A stretch of DNA of 5,550 nt from a virus, in IMG/VR virus record IMGVR_UViG_3300045988_001679, positions 1 to 5,550 of that record; one strand, written 5' to 3'. This document shows positions 1-5,550 of this stretch, in pieces. The position numbers and the translations under genes are program-made. Positions within the stretch are counted from its first letter, which is position 1, and every line of letters begins with the position of its first letter. The notes under the pieces were generated by a model. It did not search any database. It worked only from the letters and a program-made list of their open reading frames with translations, and was not told the DNA's origin.

Positions 1-99
1 CTCCCAGATGTCCGTTTTTGATTCCGTCATTGAACGATATCCCGGGTTTGGTTGTTTCTCCGGGTGATGACACGCTTGTTGCATTGAAGTTTGCCCCAA
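1..99. repeat. Terminal redundancy: 1-99 is identical to 5452-5550. This is a circular-genome overlap (unit 5451 bp), not a biological repeat.
   Basis: Exact 99-nt identity at both window ends. The VP1 reading frame is continuous across the junction only if the sequence is circularised at this overlap. Confidence 0.9.
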
Positions 100-868
100 A
101 GTCATGTTGCAGCCGCTCTTCAAGTTTTTCTGTTTTGAACGTTGTTACAGGTGCATTTCCTGTCAGTGCAATTGTTACTTCCGGTCCTCTCTGCGGATAC
201 GGCAGACAACTTGAGAAGTAATCGTGGAATCGGCTTACAGGTAAGCACCGTCCACCTTTGTATGCGTTTTTGAGTGTTGCATCTTTATCATTTTCGTCGT
301 TGTCCTGGTAGTTTACTGTTTCATCTCCCGTTGAGTTTACTGCGGGGTTTCCGACGTTTTGGTCTCTGAAAAATTCGTTCCAGATTTTTACGTATGCTCT
401 TATCGGTAGTGCGTTGATTTCTATGTCTAGCTCTTTTCCTTTTTTAATTCTTGTTGGCACTCCCATGTAGTCAAGGATTCCGTTTGCGTATGGTAATTTT
501 TCTTCTTCGGTTTCGTCTCCTTTGATTCTGATTGTTGGAATCTTGTATGTTTTTGTTGGCATCCACGGATTATCGTCTGCTTCGCCCATGAATCGCTTGA
601 AGTTATCCCATAGGATTCTGTTCGGGCAGAAGAAGTAGTAGAAGTCGATAAATGCATCGTCAAAAACCGGGTATTTCGGTGTGGTCATTCGGATGATTGC
701 CGCTGTATCCACGCTGAAAGTATCGCCGGGTAGTACTTCGTCTACATAGAACGGAATCAGCTTGCCTGCATCGAAGGTTGTCAGAATGTTCTGGTCTCTG
801 TTGAAGCGTGTCCGGCTGACGTGTGTTTCTGGTACTTGGTTGAAGTGTCTCTCATTATTCCGGTTCAT
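1..868 (-). CDS. Major capsid protein VP1 (F-like), N-terminal 289 codons. The gene starts at ATG 868-866, runs off the left edge and continues at 5451 on the circular genome.
   Basis: Minus-strand translation from 868 gives MNRNNERHFNQVPETHVSRTRFNRDQNILTTFDAGKLIPFYVDEVLPGDTFSVDTAAIIRMTTPKYPVFDDAFIDFYYFFCPNRILWDNFKRFMGE... and later ...GGRCLPVSRFHDYFSSCLPYPQRG. These are canonical gokushovirus VP1 N-terminal motifs. The frame is open to position 1 and in phase with the 4673..5524 ORF once 1 is mapped to 5452. The start ATG overlaps the upstream gene stop as ATGA. GGAG lies 11 nt upstream. Confidence 0.93.
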   Translation of the reverse strand, partial: MNRNNERHFNQVPETHVSRTRFNRDQNILTTFDAGKLIPFYVDEVLPGDTFSVDTAAIIRMTTPKYPVFDDAFIDFYYFFCPNRILWDNFKRFMGEADDNPWMPTKTYKIPTIRIKGDETEEEKLPYANGILDYMGVPTRIKKGKELDIEINALPIRAYVKIWNEFFRDQNVGNPAVNSTGDETVNYQDNDENDKDATLKNAYKGGRCLPVSRFHDYFSSCLPYPQRGPEVTIALTGNAPVTTFKTEKLEERLQHDFGANFNATSVSSPGETTKPGISFNDGIKNGHLG

Positions 869-1257
869 TGTTCATTGTTCTCCTCTTGTTTCTTTGGTTC
901 GCTTGCTGCCTTTTCCTGCATTCGCTGCAGTTCCTTTGCGTTGGCTTGTGCTGTTGCCATCATGGCGTGATATTCGTGAATATTGGTAGGCCATTCGGTC
1001 ATATCCACGGTCTCGTCCGTTTTTGCGCTATCTACCAGACTTTTTGCAAACTGCGGGTCAAAGCTAGCCTTGCGGACGATGTTTTTGATGTCGCATTCGT
1101 CTGCGTAGCTTTCGATTTCAGCTTGAATGTCGATTGATTCTGTTTCAATCAGCTTGTTTTCTCCTTCTTTGTCTTTGCCCCAGACGTACTGTTTACGCAT
1201 TTTTTCGCCTGGATTTGAAAAGAAGGGCTCCCGCCCTTCTTCGTATCTCTTATTCAT
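865..1257 (-). CDS. 130-aa acidic protein immediately upstream of and coupled to VP1; possible VP3 internal scaffolding protein. The track gives a 149-aa version from 1314.
   Basis: ATG 1257 preceded by SD GGGAGGG (8-nt spacer) and overlapping the previous stop. Stop TGA overlaps the VP1 ATG (ATGA). Contains YADECDIKNIV, which resembles the E-C-D-I-N motif I recall from Chlamydia-phage/gokushovirus VP3 scaffold proteins. That is memory only, not verified. Confidence 0.5.
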   Translation of the reverse strand: MNKRYEEGREPFFSNPGEKMRKQYVWGKDKEGENKLIETESIDIQAEIESYADECDIKNIVRKASFDPQFAKSLVDSAKTDETVDMTEWPTNIHEYHAMMATAQANAKELQRMQEKAASEPKKQEENNEQ

Positions 1258-1492
1258 GCGTTTTGCCCTCCCAGACTTTTTCCGGCTCGATGCTTCTGAA
1301 TTCGCCGGTTTCATCGTTGAAGTTTGCGATGTGGTAGCCTTTGTAGTCTTCGGGCGACTGGCCTAGAAACGTTTTTTCATCTTTTTCCATGATTTCGCAC
1401 ATTCGTGCAAAGGTCTTGTCGTTTTTGCTCTCGCCGATGTAGCAGTAGCACTTTGCTACGCTGTCGTAGATGCCATAGTATCCGTGAATCAT
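1250..1492 (-). CDS. Hypothetical protein, 80 aa (ORFan)
   Basis: ATG 1492 preceded by SD AAAGGAG (8-nt spacer). Stop TAA 1252-1250 overlaps the next gene start region (ATGAATAA). No recognisable motif. Confidence 0.55.
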   Translation of the reverse strand: MIHGYYGIYDSVAKCYCYIGESKNDKTFARMCEIMEKDEKTFLGQSPEDYKGYHIANFNDETGEFRSIEPEKVWEGKTHE

Positions 1493-1590
1493 CTTTTTTT
1501 CTCCTTTACAGTCTGATGCCGCCTCGCATGGGTTTCTGGCTTAAGTTGATACTCTTTGTTTTGCGTGCCGTCACGTTGAACATTCGTTTG

Positions 1591-1836
1591 TCAGTGCGTA
1601 CTGGCATTTTCTGCCTGTGCTTCATGTGTGTACTCCCTTCTGAGCAGCTCTAGTTCGATGTCATTTGCCCATTTCTTCATAATCCAGATTCGGTCAATGA
1701 TTTTTTTTGCTTCTTCTGAGCTGGAGACTTTTTTTATCATCTTGTATCCAGCTTCTATCTGTTTGTATAGTCTTTCGGCTTCTAGCCTAATATCTTCTTC
1801 GGGCTGGTCTCGTACGTTCCATGTTTTGTGCATCAT
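1591..1836 (-). CDS. Hypothetical protein, 81 aa (ORFan, predicted helical, charged)
   Basis: ATG start with SD AAGGAG 6 nt upstream. Same strand as all the recognisable genes. No recognisable motif. Confidence 0.55.
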   Translation of the reverse strand: MMHKTWNVRDQPEEDIRLEAERLYKQIEAGYKMIKKVSSSEEAKKIIDRIWIMKKWANDIELELLRREYTHEAQAENASTH

Positions 1837-1839
1837 GCT

Positions 1840-1944
1840 TTACTCCTTTTCTTTCAGGATGTGATAGATCTCGTCGAGCTTTTCCAGAACTTTTTTGATC
1901 ATCTGGATTGCTTCCCGCAGATCTTTGACCTTAATCAATGCCAT
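1840..1944 (-). CDS. Micro-ORF, 34 aa (MALIKVKDLREAIQMIKKVLEKLDEIYHILKEKE). Predicted amphipathic helix. Not in the supplied ORF track.
   Basis: ATG 1944 sits 3 nt after the peptidase stop (TAA 1950-1948), with SD AAAGGGGGTG 6 nt upstream. Its own last codons (AAGGAG TAA) form the SD for the next gene (ATG 1836). Fits the coupled gene chain. Confidence 0.45.
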   Translation of the reverse strand: MALIKVKDLREAIQMIKKVLEKLDEIYHILKEKE

Positions 1945-1947
1945 TGG

Positions 1948-2331
1948 TTACACCCCCTTTCTGTATCTATTTTCACGCACATCCACGTGTACGAAGTTGG
2001 TGTATCTGATTATTCCGCCTTGTTCCATGATGCTATCTGCGTACTTTGCAACTTCTTTACTTGAGCGTCCTTTTACTACGATATCGGCGGCCATTCCTTT
2101 GCAATGGTATGAATTTGGTGTTCCACCTACTTTTGTATTCCAGCTCGGTGTGCGGTATCCGCTGTTGATGATGACCGGAGTGTCGAAGTGGTTTCTGATT
2201 GTTTCCAAGATTTCGAGTAGTTTAGGTGCCCACAAGAATTCTTTTGTTTTGTCTTTGCATCTAAACTCTTCAGCTTTGAAGTGTTGCGTTAATCGGTCGT
2301 TGTTTGTTTGGTTTAAGATTGCTGTACTCAT
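1948..2331 (-). CDS. Peptidase M15 family zinc D,D-/L,D-peptidase (Peptidase_M15_3 / VanY-YcbK-like); putative peptidoglycan hydrolase (lysis). 127 aa from ATG 2331. The alternative TTG start at 2412 gives 154 aa.
   Basis: Motifs SGYRTPSWNTKVGGTPNSYHCKGMAADI and FVHVDV match the H...D...H zinc-ligand signature of the M15 family. ATG 2331 is preceded by SD AAGAGGTGG (7-nt spacer) and by the promoter at 2382-2354, which lies inside the longer TTG-initiated ORF. No signal peptide or TM segment. Confidence 0.85.
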   Translation of the reverse strand: MSTAILNQTNNDRLTQHFKAEEFRCKDKTKEFLWAPKLLEILETIRNHFDTPVIINSGYRTPSWNTKVGGTPNSYHCKGMAADIVVKGRSSKEVAKYADSIMEQGGIIRYTNFVHVDVRENRYRKGV

Positions 2332-2353
2332 TTTTTTACCACCTCTTGTTTTT

Positions 2354-2400
2354 TTTATATCATACCCGGCTTGATAAGTCAAGGATTTTTGAAAAAAATT
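2354..2400 (-). promoter_or_regulatory. Sigma70-type promoter on the minus strand: -35 TTGACT (2382-2377), 17-nt spacer, extended -10 TGaTATAAA (2362-2354), AT-rich UP-like tract (2400-2383). Predicted TSS about 2347.
   Basis: Read directly on the minus strand: AATTTTTTTCAAAAATCC TTGACT tatcaagccgggtatga TATAAA aaaaacAAGAGGTGGtaaaaaaATG. Near-consensus hexamers, 17-bp spacing, TGn extended -10, then SD and the ATG of the peptidase. Confidence 0.6.
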
Positions 2401-2433
2401 TTTGACGTTCAAGTCGGATGCCCGCGGCAGGCG

Positions 2434-2536
2434 TTTTCAACATTTTCAACATACTTTTCAACATTTCAACATTGTTAAACTTTAGCATAATAGAGTGTTT
2501 CAACAATTCAACAAGTTTTCAACAAATCTTTCAACA
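2434..2536. repeat. Eight same-orientation copies of TTCAACA (mostly TTTTCAACA) in two clusters of four (2436-2471 and 2499-2536). Start-to-start spacings are 9, 12, 8, 34, 8, 11 and 12 bp, with phased T-tracts. Iteron-like array / curved DNA upstream of the promoter.
   Basis: Copies begin at 2436, 2445, 2457, 2465, 2499, 2507, 2518 and 2530. There is a degenerate ninth copy (TTCAACT) at 2584. TTTTCAACA differs by one base from the DnaA-box consensus TTWTNCACA. Confidence 0.7.
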
Positions 2537-2635
2537 TTTCTTTTCAGCTGTTTTTTACGCTCTGTCGTTATAAAATAGTAGTTTTCAACTTTTCCACATA
2601 CTCTACTACTACGACTACAACAAGTTATATTATAA

Positions 2636-2684
2636 TACGTGCGCACGCGTGCGCGTGTACTTTTCGCGTGTACGTGTGTGCGCG
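2636..2684. repeat. GC-rich strictly alternating pyrimidine/purine tracts (25 nt at 2636-2660; 20 nt at 2665-2684) with a perfect 14-bp palindrome GCGCACGCGTGCGC (2641-2654) and the direct repeat CGCGTGTAC x2. Z-DNA / cruciform-prone element.
   Basis: Sequence tacgtgcgcacgcgtgcgcgtgtac ttttcgcgtgtacgtgtgtgcgcg. This is the only GC-rich island inside an AT-rich non-coding region. Confidence 0.7.
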
Positions 2685-2704
2685 ATTAGAATAATTAGTT
2701 AAAT
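2677..2704. other. Possible dif-like XerC/XerD recombination motif (TGTGCGCGATT AGAATA ATTAGTTAAAT)
   Basis: Partial match to E. coli dif GGTGCGCATAA TGTATA TTATGTTAAAT (GTGCGC in the left arm, GTTAAAT at the right end; about 18/28 ungapped). Gokushovirus prophages of Enterobacteria are reported to integrate at dif. Confidence 0.3.
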
Positions 2705-2744
2705 AGTAATAATTATCACTTTTCACGTGAGACTAAACAATAAT

Positions 2745-2776
2745 AGCCCAGTACCTTACTTGATAGGTACTGGGCT
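2745..2776 (-). terminator. Perfect 11-bp stem / 10-nt loop hairpin (AGCCCAGTACC ... GGTACTGGGCT), 12 nt downstream of the Rep stop. Likely intrinsic terminator closing the genome-long transcription unit; could also be an ssDNA-form priming/ori hairpin.
   Basis: 2745-2755 is the exact reverse complement of 2766-2776. In mRNA sense it is followed by AUUAUUGUUU (U-rich). It sits between the Rep stop (2791-2789) and the AT-rich non-coding region. Confidence 0.5.
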
Positions 2777-2788
2777 AGGTGACACCAA

Positions 2789-3808
2789 TTATAAAATACC
2801 ACGCTTTTTCGTTTGTTTTTTGGTGACACGTTCTTTTGTCTCTAGGATCGTTTTATAGTCCTTTCCTTCCAGCTGTAGACGCTTCTGCTCTATTGCGTTT
2901 TTCTGCCTGTTTTGTTTGATTCTCCACAGTCTTTGTGGGTTTTCTGCTTCCATCTGCTTTTCGTAGTATCTAGGAATTTGTGCTTGTTTTCCGTTGCTGC
3001 ATTGAATGTATCCTTGTTTCCAAATTTCTGCCTTGTGCTCTTGGTAGTAATGGTCTCCAAGGCCCGGCTTTAGACTCATGCAAGCAAATGGCTTTGTTTG
3101 TCCCAACTCGTAGTATGCATTGGCTTTTTTTCCGTCTATTTCGTACATTTTTTTTGTAACATACCCTGCAACATATCTATAGGTTTCTGGAACGGCTTGC
3201 GCTATCTGTATTTGACCCATGCCCCACAGGTCTTTCAACCACTCGCTGGTGTAGTATCCATTGTGGTGAATTTTGTACAAGTTTTTTAGGTCTGTCGGCT
3301 CCCAACCATATAGTATCATGTGATAGTGCGGTCTCGCTGTTTGTTCTCCGTATTCACCCGCTACAAAATAGCGTAATTTGCTCCTGTAAGCCTTTCTGAG
3401 ACGTTTTAAGAATTTTTGAATATCCTCATATAGCAGAATTTGTACGCTGTCTGGGCGCTTCTCTCCCGGCTTCCATGTGTATTGTACTTTTCGCATGATT
3501 TCGCCTGTCTTTACTATCATGCCTGGTACGTGGTCATCGTCATAAGTTAGTGTGATAAACCATACCTGCTCTTTTGGGTAATCTCTTGCTTCCAGCTCGA
3601 TTCGTGTTGTCCAGTCCTCTCGCTGCCTGATTCTGCATCCGATGCATTGTCCGCATGGTATCAACATAACTTTCGGATTATACATCAAATCTTCATATCT
3701 TAGCTGTTTCCCGCTTAACTGAGAAATGCGGGCGAGTGAATACACCCGCCCGCTCACTTCCTTGTTGTTTGGGTTGTACAGCCTGATTAGTGGCTTGTAA
3801 CAACTCAC
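2789..3808 (-). CDS. VP4 rolling-circle replication initiator (HUH Rep), about 339 aa. Start GTG 3808-3806 overlaps the VP2 stop (GTGA). The track version extended to 3979 is less likely.
   Basis: HUH endonuclease motifs in order: WFITLTYDD (motif I), [10 protein letters not shown] (motif II, HxH), [11 protein letters not shown] (motif III, catalytic Tyr). N-terminal Cys cluster SCYKPL...[10 protein letters not shown]. Excellent SD AGGAGGAGGAAG plus a 6-nt A spacer before GTG 3808. The 3979 GTG has no RBS, and the first in-frame ATG is at 3685. Confidence 0.9.
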
Positions 3809-4650
3809 TTTTTTCTTCCTCCTCCTGCGTGGAATTTTCCTCCGCCCGCGTTGAATGGAATTGTTTTTTCTGTATCTTCCATCTGTTCGTATGTTTTTAG
3901 CAGGTCTTTTGTTAGCTCGTATGGGCTTGTATAGCCTTTTGACATTTGGGTTCCTACGGCTTCGGAGAGCTGATACCACGTTGATTTTGCAATGCTTTTA
4001 TTGTAGTAGCTGTTTGGCACGTTGCCGCTTAGCGCAGATACTCCCAGAGCGCTTGATGTTGGCATTCCCATGCTTGCGCCTGTGATTGTTGCACCTGCAC
4101 CTCCCGGTGTGCTTGCTCCGCCCTGTGCGTATGCCAAAATCGGGTTTAGTCCTGCTTTTCGCATATCTTCTACGGCTCTTTGATATGCTGTGTTGCTCAT
4201 TCTTTCTTGGAAATTGCGGTTTGCTAGCGCTTCTGCGCTGTTGTATTGCATTGCGGCGTTTTGTTCGATGTGGTTGTAAATACCCTGTTGGATTGCCCCC
4301 AGCGTGTTATAGCCCATCTGCATGAGCATGTTTTGTCGGTTTGTTTTGCTTTGGAATGCGTTTTGCCCGCCCTGCCAGTTGTAGTATTGACTGAGATATT
4401 TCATTATCTGTTCGTCATTCGTGCCGCCTTCTGCAACGCTTAGTGATGTTCCACCGCCCTTTCCTGTGCTTACGTTGCTTCCTTGGCTGATGTTTTCGCT
4501 TTTTTGGCCGTACATTGATGATAGTCCACCGCCCAGCAGTTGCATCGCTCCGGTTATGACTGCTGGGTTCTGTGCTAACCATGCTCCTGCTTTGGCTGCT
4601 CCACTTGCAAGCATTGCTCCTAGTCCTGCCATTTTAAATATAGCCCGCAT
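3805..4650 (-). CDS. VP2 minor capsid / DNA pilot protein (281 aa)
   Basis: Gly/Ala/Gln-rich protein with the conserved motif [22 protein letters not shown] typical of gokushovirus VP2. Located directly downstream of VP1. Strong SD AAGGAGGAA lies 12 nt before ATG 4650, 22 nt after the VP1 stop. C-terminal [13 protein letters not shown]. Confidence 0.85.
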
Positions 4651-4672
4651 TTCTGCGGGCTTCCTCCTTTCT

Positions 4673-5550
4673 TTACAGTTTTTCCAGACCCGGCACGCTG
4701 TACAGCGGCATGCAGCGAGTGGTTTTGTTCATTACCCTGATTGCCCCGAAGAACTGCGGTTCGTTCTGGACGATTAAAGTTCTTGCGATTTCTGTTTTGT
4801 CCTCGTTCATCCACTCTTGGCTCAGTGTCGGCACGGTGCTGTAGTTGTCCGCATAGTGCCAGAAGTCTAGCGTGCCTTCTGCATTGCTCCGCATTTTACC
4901 GCTTACCCGGTTAGGCTTCATTCGGTAGTCTGCCCAGGCTTCCTGGTAGCCGAACGTTTCATTATCTGTGCTTGTGCCGGTCAGCATGATTTCTTTCTTT
5001 TTGACAGGCTGTTCGCCCAGATTTGCAAACTGCGGGAAGTAGTAGTCCAGTCTGTCACTGCGGCTCCAGAATCGTTCCAAGCCTTGCTGATAGCTGTGAT
5101 TATGGCGAACACACATAACACCGATAACAAACCCGTGTTCCTCAAAGCTTTTTGTGAAGCTGCTTTCGTTAATCGGTGTGACAGACATTGCACCGGTTTC
5201 ACCGATAGGCGTATCGTCTGCGGTCTGCTGCCCGCTGGTCTGTACGATTTGGTTGATGTTTACATGATAGCGTCCGCCACCCAGATACTCCGGCACCTGA
5301 ACCGTTTTATCGCTGATGCTTACGCCAAACAGTGTTCGTACCTGTTCACGGTATCGGCTGCCTCCACGGGCCAGTGCTTCATAGTAGTGCTGAACTGCAA
5401 ATGCCTGACGCAGCTGGTTGATTGTTGCGGCTTCGATTCCCGTTAGGTCTGCTCCCAGATGTCCGTTTTTGATTCCGTCATTGAACGATATCCCGGGTTT
5501 GGTTGTTTCTCCGGGTGATGACACGCTTGTTGCATTGAAGTTTGCCCCAA
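4673..5550 (-). CDS. Major capsid protein VP1, C-terminal part (stop TAA at 4675-4673). Bases 5452-5550 duplicate 1-99. The full gene is 1647 nt / 548 aa across the junction.
   Basis: Track ORF 4673..5524 (the GTG 'start' is an internal Val codon). Conserved gokushovirus VP1 C-terminal blocks: [107 protein letters not shown]. Confidence 0.93.
5452..5550. repeat. Second copy of the terminal redundancy (same bases as 1-99)
   Basis: See the 1-99 feature. Confidence 0.9.

Follow-up and report, generated by a model that had tools for sequence, protein, structure and literature searches.

Why should a small phage of the gut carry, in the one large non-coding stretch of its genome, an array of short repeats that all point the same way? 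The question is raised by the IMG/VR virus record IMGVR_UViG_3300045988_001679, positions 1 to 5,550 (the window, by which we mean this whole stretch of DNA), which comprises a circular gokushovirus genome of 5451 nt plus a 99-nt terminal overlap, with 45% G+C. Its sole large non-coding stretch, 2333-2788, extends from the stop codon of the Rep gene to the start codon of a peptidase gene and holds the repeats. An initial annotation had read them either as iterons for a DNA-binding protein, be it Rep, the product of a small open reading frame (ORF) or host DnaA, or as curved DNA that boosts a neighboring promoter. The comparisons described here lead us to favor, on balance, the reading that in TTCAACA we have a DnaA box such as the Oscillospirales use, and that the ~200-bp cassette in which they lie is a host-origin unwinding module joined to the nick core of the phage Rep.

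The eight same-orientation copies are indeed present. They start on the + strand at 2436, 2445, 2457, 2465, 2499, 2507, 2518 and 2530 and account for eight of the nine TTCAACA copies in the window, for whose entire length 1.02 copies (standard deviation 0.99) would be expected; none of 200 dinucleotide shuffles reached nine. Measured from start to start, the copies are 9, 12 and 8 bp apart in the first cluster and 8, 11 and 12 bp apart in the second, with a step of 34 bp from one cluster to the next (within-cluster mean 10.0), and Tandem Repeats Finder gives TTTTCAACA as the unit of the array. There are also two degenerate copies on the + strand that the initial annotation did not mention, TTCAACT at 2584-2590 and TTCCACA at 2592-2598, the latter of which, taken as a 9-mer, is TTTTCCACA, a perfect fit to the relaxed DnaA-box consensus TTWTNCACA. 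Along the + strand the cassette thus reads as 4+4 boxes, a box pair, a 4-bp spacer, the triplets CTA-CTA-CTA, the 12-mer AACTTGTTGTAG (on the minus strand) and an AT-rich tract, and its parts, with the GC-rich repeat that flanks it, are the following:

2434-2471, + strand: distal box cluster, farthest from the nick; TTTTCAACA, TTTTCAACA, TTTTCAACA and ATTTCAACA at spacings of 9, 12 and 8 bp, conserved in relatives
2472-2496: inter-cluster spacer, box-free and moderately conserved in a 73-cassette profile
2497-2536, + strand: proximal box cluster; GTTTCAACA, AATTCAACA, TTTTCAACA and CTTTCAACA at spacings of 8, 11 and 12 bp
2506-2517, minus strand: pseudo nick core AACTTGTTGAAT, formed by two adjacent boxes inside the proximal cluster
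2537-2581: A/T-rich spacer, variable in sequence among relatives and of low conservation
2582-2598, + strand: box pair adjoining the triplets, TTTTCAACT (2582-2590) and TTTTCCACA (2590-2598), with T2590 common to both; highly conserved
2599-2602, + strand: 4-bp spacer TACT
2603-2620, minus strand: DnaA-trio-like triplets, 5'-TTG TAG TCG TAG TAG TAG-3' on the coding strand
2615-2626, minus strand: putative Rep nick core AACTTGTTGTAG, with the presumed nick after AACTTG, between 2621 and 2620; the oligonucleotide sequence for the putative cleavage site is TATAACTTGTTGTAGTCG
2621-2637: short AT-rich tract CAAGTTATATTATAATA, in the position of the AT-rich unwinding element of host origins
2638-2684: GC-rich tandem repeat in which purines alternate with pyrimidines (CGTGCGCACGCGTGCGCGTGTAC...); it includes a 14-bp palindrome and flanks the cassette beside the AT-rich tract

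In published bacterial origins the boxes are followed, after a short spacer, by 3'-GAT-5' trios on the opposite strand and then by an AT-rich element (PMC8287927, PMC7561715, PMC10201434). The DnaA-trio consensus is 3'-GAT-5' on the strand opposite that of the boxes (PMC8287927, PMC10201434), the trio of C. difficile being 5'-CACCTACTACTATTACTACTATGA-3' (PMC7561715); such a module has three or more of these trinucleotides in a row, each with A in the middle, and the DnaA box, with at most two mismatches to the box of the species, lies 0-16 bp from the trios and faces them, usually as a tandem pair (PMC8287927). In the window, 4 bp separate a tandem pair from the triplets, and the pair is on the CTA strand, like its counterpart in host origins; CTA CTA CTA at 2603-2611, which is TAG TAG TAG on the strand opposite the boxes, is followed by CGA CTA CAA. 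The proximal part as a whole reads TTTTCAACT TTTCCACA TACT CTA CTA CTA CGA CTA CAA CAAGTT ATATTATAATA on the + strand and 5'-AACTTG/TTG TAG TCG TAG TAG TAG-AGTA-box-box-3' on the coding strand. Relatives carry three to six TAG triplets, and the place of the spacer is taken by GGAG or GGGC (coding strand) in relatives and by cact, tagc or cccc in hosts. The order and polarity are those of the bacterial basal unwinding system (B. subtilis incC, Richardson/Murray; PMC8287927, PMC6669920, PMC10201434), with which the cassette has in common the tandem boxes, a spacer of ~4 bp, at least three 3'-GAT-5' triplets on the opposite strand and more boxes of the same orientation upstream, with a shorter AT-rich tract in the place of the unwinding element.

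The likeness extends to actual bacterial origins. A BLAST search with the cassette returned two weak matches, to the fecal contigs MT838777 (L097) and MT837552 (L100), both of which encode DnaA and the DNA polymerase III beta subunit (DnaN) and match within the dnaA-dnaN intergenic region. Both records carry the label 'Bacteriophage sp.' and are pieces of bacterial DNA with dnaA, oriC and dnaN; the DnaA proteins that they encode share 99-100% identity with those of contigs from metagenome-assembled genomes named Ruminococcus, Hominimerdicola, Cibiobacter or Acutalibacteraceae. From dnaA to dnaN they contain TTCAACAttTTCAACAtagttTTCAACA, more boxes, TTCAACCatTTCAACA cact CTACTACTA and an AT-rich tract. 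When the triple-box pattern TGTTGAAAANNNNGTTGAAAATGTTGAAA was scanned over 185,579 genomes, one per species, at least 120 stretches were found, most of which belong by record title to Oscillospirales-type Clostridia (Oscillospiraceae, Ruminococcus, Acutalibacteraceae, Faecalibacterium, Gemmiger, Subdoligranulum, Caproiciproducens, Hominimerdicola and less precisely named Clostridia). Hominimerdicola aceti and Caproiciproducens galactitolivorans are cultured species with the motif. The stretches lie mostly on contigs of tens of kilobases, the largest being a complete chromosome of 2.5 Mb, and by tblastn the phage Rep was absent from every such host locus tested, with no evidence of integration.

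At 24 of these loci, L097 and L100 included, all of them chromosome fragments of Oscillospirales (Ruminococcus, Gemmiger, Subdoligranulum and others), the motif falls within the dnaA-dnaN intergenic region, in the layout dnaA stop codon, TTCAACAttTTCAACAnagttTTCAACA, further boxes, box pair, 4 bp, CTACTACTA, AT-rich tract and dnaN, to which the layout of the cassette is nearly identical. The host box pair, for which TTCAACCatTTCAACA and TTCCACAgaTTCAACG are examples, is in the equivalent place; the boxes, the 9/12-bp spacing and the box-box-spacer-CTACTACTA core are common to phage cassette and host origins; the 9/12-bp triple of the distal cluster also follows the dnaA stop codon in the hosts; and the 8-bp spacing recurs in host origins (L183, L218). 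A pattern of box, box, spacer and at least two CTA triplets had 14 matches in 1.8 Mb of host DNA, every one of them in the dnaA-dnaN regions that total only 12.3 kb, and matched 70 of 93 phage loci, in the window at 2584-2611. By chance it appeared in none of 2000 shuffles of the phage genome and in one of 2000 shuffles of the intergenic region.

Which box do these hosts use? With the search stretch masked, the commonest 7-mers of the host origin regions are TTTCAAC (92) and TTCAACA (76), against 20 for the canonical TTCCACA, and TTTTCAACA is the dominant DnaA-box variant there, commoner than TTTTCCACA. All 23 readable host DnaA proteins have [RK][DN]HST, followed in most by Y or T, at the place where B. 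subtilis DnaA (PDB 8btg) has RDHTTVIHA. This diverged signature, together with the prevalence of TTTTCAACA, suggests a lineage-specific DnaA-box preference in the Oscillospirales; the segment concerned reportedly makes base contacts in the E. coli DnaA-box complex, according to work by Fujikawa et al. in 2003, on which the link from signature to box preference depends. The triple box is also found inside the mutL linker of 22 genomes (L104, L114 and L155, for example), where it reads VEKxVENVEK, and in ~7 (L171 and others) it separates a gene for a U32 peptidase from one for a dUTPase; these may be DnaA-box clusters outside the origin. In a microvirus of another lineage, bajarodmic virus 789 (PQ007026, L098), TTTTCAACA and TTTTTCCACA at ~2140-2220 face three TGTTGAAAACTA repeats, with no CTA triplets, a hint that boxes of the Oscillospirales type are present in further lineages of microviruses as well.

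Of the binders named in the initial annotation, it is host DnaA that gains by these comparisons, for the same motif at the same 9/12-bp spacing forms arrays between dnaA and dnaN in the hosts and, in the phage, adjoins a trio-like CTA repeat that is oriented as in an origin, and we regard it as very likely that host DnaA binds the boxes. It is likely, too, if a little less so, that the cassette takes part in initiating replication. The cassette itself is a copy or mimic and not a chromosomal origin: it lies between the Rep and peptidase genes of a 5451-nt microvirus.

The cassette, with its fixed geometry, is common to ~200 related gut gokushoviruses. In relatives fetched via Rep (80) or via DNA similarity, a search for the motif, which the initial annotation had proposed as a check, found the repeats in the 4+4 layout in nearly all. 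An alignment of 73 cassettes has three near-fully conserved islands, namely TATAACTTGTTGTAG followed by GTAG/TAG triplets, the pair GTGGAAAAGTTGAAAA and the eight repeats; in the same alignment, both 2333-2430 and the DNA from the last repeat to the downstream promoter are unconserved. The 12-mer AACTTGTTGTAG is exact in ~80 relatives, and the extended pattern AACTTGTTGTAGNNGTAGTAG matches at least 119 microvirus-sized IMG/VR contigs; four matches to this pattern in viral contigs of 10-77 kb are low-complexity coding repeats and were set aside. Between the start of the 12-mer and that of the first box there are 28 nt in 50 loci and 36 nt in 27, and the length of the cassette is 184-196 nt across relatives. 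From one relative to another, the box at a given position switches between TGTTGAA, TGTGGAA and TGTGGATAA; the variants found in the phages are TGTTGAAAA (218), TGTTGAAAG (146), AGTTGAAAA (64) and TGTGGAAAA (56), with the textbook TGTGGATAA in some relatives. The sequence of the repeat is constant over Reps that are 38-96% identical to that of the window, and both the proximal cluster and the pseudo nick core AACTTGTTGAAT within it are kept even where Rep is only ~40% identical. In one relative, L076 (IMGVR_UViG_3300045988_086966, 8781 nt), Rep is followed by an unrelated insert, and the 5.9 kb that were fetched contain no cassette.

The cassette also moves as a unit. In 88 of 114 classified genomes it follows Rep in gene orientation, in four it follows Rep but is inverted, and in 22, whose Reps are only 38-42% identical to that of the window, it is inverted between VP2 and Rep; in the 26 genomes with an inverted or relocated cassette it is always accompanied by the nick core and the triplets, and not by a promoter. 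Examples of inverted cassettes are L046, L057, L075 and L088, and those inverted between VP2 and Rep are L090, L092 and 22 IMG/VR contigs; MG945867 and KT264784 are relatives with an inverted cassette. The repeats thus stay together with the 12-mer and the triplets whichever way the cassette points and at both of its places in the genome, which counts against their being an activator site, an UP element or curved DNA. If the nick site is part of the cassette, the genomes in which it is inverted should package the strand antisense to their genes, and we know of no description of such packaging in the Microviridae.

The 12-mer AACTTGTTGTAG is most likely the Rep nick site, as judged from its likeness to the origins of other Microviridae. 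Rep is a two-tyrosine HUH protein, with HYH as its HUH motif and paired tyrosines in YVAGYVTKK, as in phiX174 protein A. In origins of the phiX174 type, the gene A protein nicks CAACTTG/ATA; in a phiX-type phage of the database the ACTTG core is ACAACTTGATATTAATAAC, within ACAACTTGATATTAATAACACTATAGACCAC and inside gene A, which we take to be the classical phiX origin. The cassette resembles such an origin in having an ACTTG core on the coding (viral) strand and a two-tyrosine HUH Rep, and differs from it in that the site is intergenic rather than in the Rep gene and that DnaA-type boxes and triplets stand in place of the phiX 'key' binding sequence. In three cultured gokushoviruses, cores of the ACTTG type lie in hairpin loops and are candidate nick sites:

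L093, 3291-3340, coding strand: phiMH2K core ACTTGTTGTA, intergenic, in the loop of a strong hairpin (z -3.7)
L095, 505-552, coding strand: SpV4 core ACTTGTTATA, intergenic, in the loop of a strong hairpin (z -6.0)
L094, ~2900-2950, coding strand: Chp2 core CTACTTGAT, intergenic, in the loop of a strong hairpin (z -7.7)

The nick core of the cassette, unlike those of phiMH2K, SpV4 and Chp2, has no hairpin. Neither a hairpin nor a cruciform was predicted at the core in the window (minimum free energy 0 kcal/mol, z +1.9; z +0.6 for the wider region). With the hairpin absent and the core kept, the lineage would have lost the structure that normally presents the nick core in single-stranded form. 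A match to the pMV158 nick 9-mer TACTACGAC (PMC1851628) at 2607-2615 on the + strand was judged to be due to chance, its central CG varying in relatives (CGG, CGT, CTC), whereas AACTTGTTGTAG, read from the opposite strand, is invariant in them. The nick core TGTTGTA differs by one base from the box TGTTGAA. In Chp2 (L094), A-tracts phased at 11-12 bp and two copies of TGTGCAAAA that fit the relaxed DnaA-box consensus are found at ~2815-2880, ~95 nt upstream of the hairpin.

It is tempting to imagine how such a module might work. ATP-DnaA of the host would fill the boxes on the double-stranded replicative form and would then oligomerize, starting at the box pair, over the six triplets, on the coding strand. 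The duplex would melt at the border between triplets and AT-rich tract, so that Rep would meet its nick site in single-stranded form and start rolling-circle replication, with the cassette replacing the hairpin by which other gokushoviruses would present their nick core. phiX174, for its part, needs negative supercoiling to expose its nick site. DnaA might be used in other ways, through loading of the host helicase for theta-type or carrier-state replication, or through titration of DnaA away from the host, and we would put the chance that the module serves specifically to open the duplex for Rep nicking at somewhat less than even.

By BLAST, the genome falls among uncultured gut Gokushovirinae from feces of human, pig and monkey. 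The minus strand encodes every gene; the terminal repeat is exact (1-99 equals 5452-5550), and the circle is cut within the capsid gene. The features outside the cassette are:

868, wrapping around the circle, minus strand: major capsid protein
4650-3805, minus strand: VP2-like protein
3685-2789, minus strand: Rep/VP4 (Pfam REP_ORF2-G2P)
2744-2777, minus strand: terminator-like hairpin after the Rep gene, at the upstream border of the intergenic region
2354-2382, minus strand: promoter-like site, TTGACT-17 nt-TATAAA with a TG upstream, outside the conserved cassette and with the peptidase M15 operon downstream
2331-1948, minus strand: peptidase M15
Minus strand: ORF5; Chlamydia-phage-type scaffold protein

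No Rfam family matched at gathering thresholds, and a structured RNA is unsupported. Small ORFs over the repeats (51 aa on the + strand, 42 aa on the minus strand) were rejected as by-products of the repeats (MLK repeats), and a dif/XerCD site or parS in the AT-rich or variable intergenic parts was set aside after inspection by eye, none being conserved in relatives. The GC-rich repeat at 2638-2684 is kept by most relatives, is absent from L057 and is present in the unrelated microvirus PQ007026 (L098); its absence from L057 indicates that it is probably not essential.

Of the other explanations, the one closest to the initial annotation is that phased repeats and T-tracts stimulate the promoter at 2382-2354, be it as activator site, as UP element or through curvature of the DNA. 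The promoter is there as described, with TTGACT, 17 nt and TATAAA on the minus strand; the clusters lie ~55-155 bp upstream of its -35 hexamer, each unit has a T4 tract, the spacing averages 10.0 bp, and transcription factor is among the roles of DnaA. The label of the site as the only strong promoter could not be confirmed, in that promoter-like sites across the window are at chance level (six found, 6.1 expected, by a scan whose rule passes over the 2382-2354 site, where the second hexamer ends in A). The phasing did not hold up either: individual spacings of 8, 9, 11 and 12 bp are out of phase and are the same as those of host origins. Nor is the position that of an upstream activator, as in relatives a promoter-like site follows the last box at anything from 50 to 367 nt (median 114), neither the DNA in between nor the gene downstream is constant, and the cassette is inverted or lies between VP2 and Rep in 26 of 114 genomes; a promoter function is the least probable of the readings that we considered. 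Scarcely better placed is the proposal that another host protein binds the repeats, such as the sporulation regulator Spo0A, whose box TGNCGAA has the same length of 7 bp and one mismatch to TGTTGAA. The hosts are Clostridia, phage phi29 exploits Spo0A, and Spo0A sites overlap DnaA boxes in the B. subtilis origin. Yet TGTCGAA is found 0 times against 465 for TGTTGAA in 73 phage cassettes, and 5 times against 169 in host origin regions, which excludes Spo0A boxes as far as the motif goes. The motif also stands beside the trios, the place by which DnaA boxes are defined, and TTCCACA and ATCCACA can replace it there.

Two further explanations deserve somewhat more weight, though both seem to us improbable. 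The repeats might be a binding locus of the phage Rep, like the direct repeats of pMV158 or the iterons of CRESS-DNA viruses, with the likeness to host origins secondary. Ten same-strand repeats do lie 22-190 nt downstream of the putative nick, as direct repeats at a fixed distance with a proximal pair and distal clusters, after the manner of pMV158, and repeat and nick core share TGTTG, the pseudo nick core AACTTGTTGAAT being conserved inside the cluster. What disfavors Rep, and with it a small ORF product, as the binder is that identical repeats and spacing, and the box-spacer-triplet core, occur in dnaA-dnaN regions of bacterial chromosomes that have no phage Rep; that the repeat is unchanged over Reps 38-96% identical, unlike the fast co-variation typical of Rep iterons; and that the canonical DnaA boxes TGTGGAAAA and TGTGGATAA substitute at the same positions. 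Slightly less improbable is a DnaA sink or regulator, in which the many copies of the replicative form would soak up DnaA and so block host initiation or tie phage expression to DnaA. DnaA titration has precedents in datA and in the DnaA-box clusters of B. subtilis, origin fragments of B. subtilis cause incompatibility when on plasmids, the array in the window is upstream of a promoter-like site, and the host triple boxes at non-origin sites (mutL in 22 genomes, U32 peptidase/dUTPase in ~7) indicate that such arrays act beyond unwinding. A sink, however, would need no box pair, 4-bp spacer, origin-oriented TAG triplets or fixed distance to the nick core, and these are the most conserved parts; moreover, the cassette stays with the nick core and not with any promoter.

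Several considerations weigh against the reading that we favor, that of Oscillospirales-type DnaA boxes within a host-origin unwinding module. TTTTCAACA breaks the CACA core of nearly all described DnaA boxes, and we infer from where it lies in predicted origins that it is a DnaA box. It was the phage motif that led to the host loci, and this introduces some circularity, which is lessened by the masking and by the independent core next to the trios. Away from the origin, too, the triple box is found, for example in mutL of 22 genomes, and boxes alone are therefore no proof of an unwinding role. The AT-rich stretch is only ~17 bases long (2621-2637) and is followed by the GC-rich repeat, as compared with 30-60 bases or more in host origins, and the spacer TACT of the window is not GC-rich. 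Iteron and nick core share TGTTG, and with AACTTGTTGAAT inside the cluster there is room for contact of Rep with the repeats. The nick position after AACTTG is a putative one, placed from phiX174, and the assignment of the phage to an Oscillospirales host is indirect, through the likeness of the origins. Finally, only the two ends of the cassette, the triple box and the box-trio core, resemble host origins while the middle differs, and with only the ends alike, capture from a host and convergence are indistinguishable.

How does the cassette compare with other replicons? From a chromosomal origin it differs in being on a 5.4-kb ssDNA (single-stranded DNA) phage, in having neither dnaA nor dnaN as neighbors and in having a Rep nick core built into its last triplets; it is ~200 bp long, compared with 300-1600 bp for the host origin region, and its AT-rich tract of ~17 bp gives way to a GC-rich repeat. 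P1 oriR, pSC101, F, RK2 and R6K are replicons that recruit host DnaA through boxes beside the site of their own initiator, but these origins serve theta replication, have one to few boxes and open via their own Rep iterons, and we found no report in the open-access literature of an origin of the P1/pSC101 type with a full box-trio module or a rolling-circle nick site. The double-strand origin of pMV158 has proximal and distal repeats, with a bind locus 84 bp from the nick (PMC1851628), and the cassette is like it in serving, as we suppose, rolling-circle replication and in the layout of its direct repeats, with one pair near the nick and a distal set ~85 bp downstream of it. In pMV158, however, the repeats bind the plasmid's RepB and the nick is in a hairpin loop, whereas those of the cassette are the same as the DnaA boxes of hosts. 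The use of DnaA boxes by extrachromosomal origins is well known, and the novelty would lie in a box-trio module beside a rolling-circle nick. Our searches of the open-access literature found neither a paper that connects DnaA boxes or trios with gokushoviruses or Microviridae nor one that describes DnaA boxes at the nick of a rolling-circle origin.

Gokushoviruses are among the commonest viruses of the gut, and the hosts of these gut lineages are uncultured and largely unknown. To our knowledge no replication origin has been mapped for these lineages, and none was found in our literature searches. If the reading given here is correct, there would now be a concrete map of such an origin, with nick site, opening module and binding sites, and the phage origin sequence itself would assign a host (Oscillospirales, including Ruminococcus-type bacteria), an approach that could serve host prediction for uncultured phages. 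It would also mean that a major order of gut bacteria uses a variant DnaA box, TTTTCAACA, together with a diverged DnaA recognition helix, and that the DnaA-trio model could be tested on a natural 200-bp module outside the chromosome. For the phages, a rolling-circle replicon would borrow the host initiator DnaA in place of a hairpin, phage DNA synthesis would be coupled to host ATP-DnaA and the state of the cell cycle, and a plasmid-like persistence of the replicative form would be possible. Cytoplasmic persistence of phage DNA in a carrier state has been documented for the gokushovirus EC6098 (PMC7062461), and a DnaA-driven origin could help to explain it. It is an attractive, if tentative, notion, drawn from sequence comparison, that a large clade of gut ssDNA phages has fused a DnaA-dependent unwinding module to a rolling-circle nick site, such that the host's own initiator would license replication of the phage.

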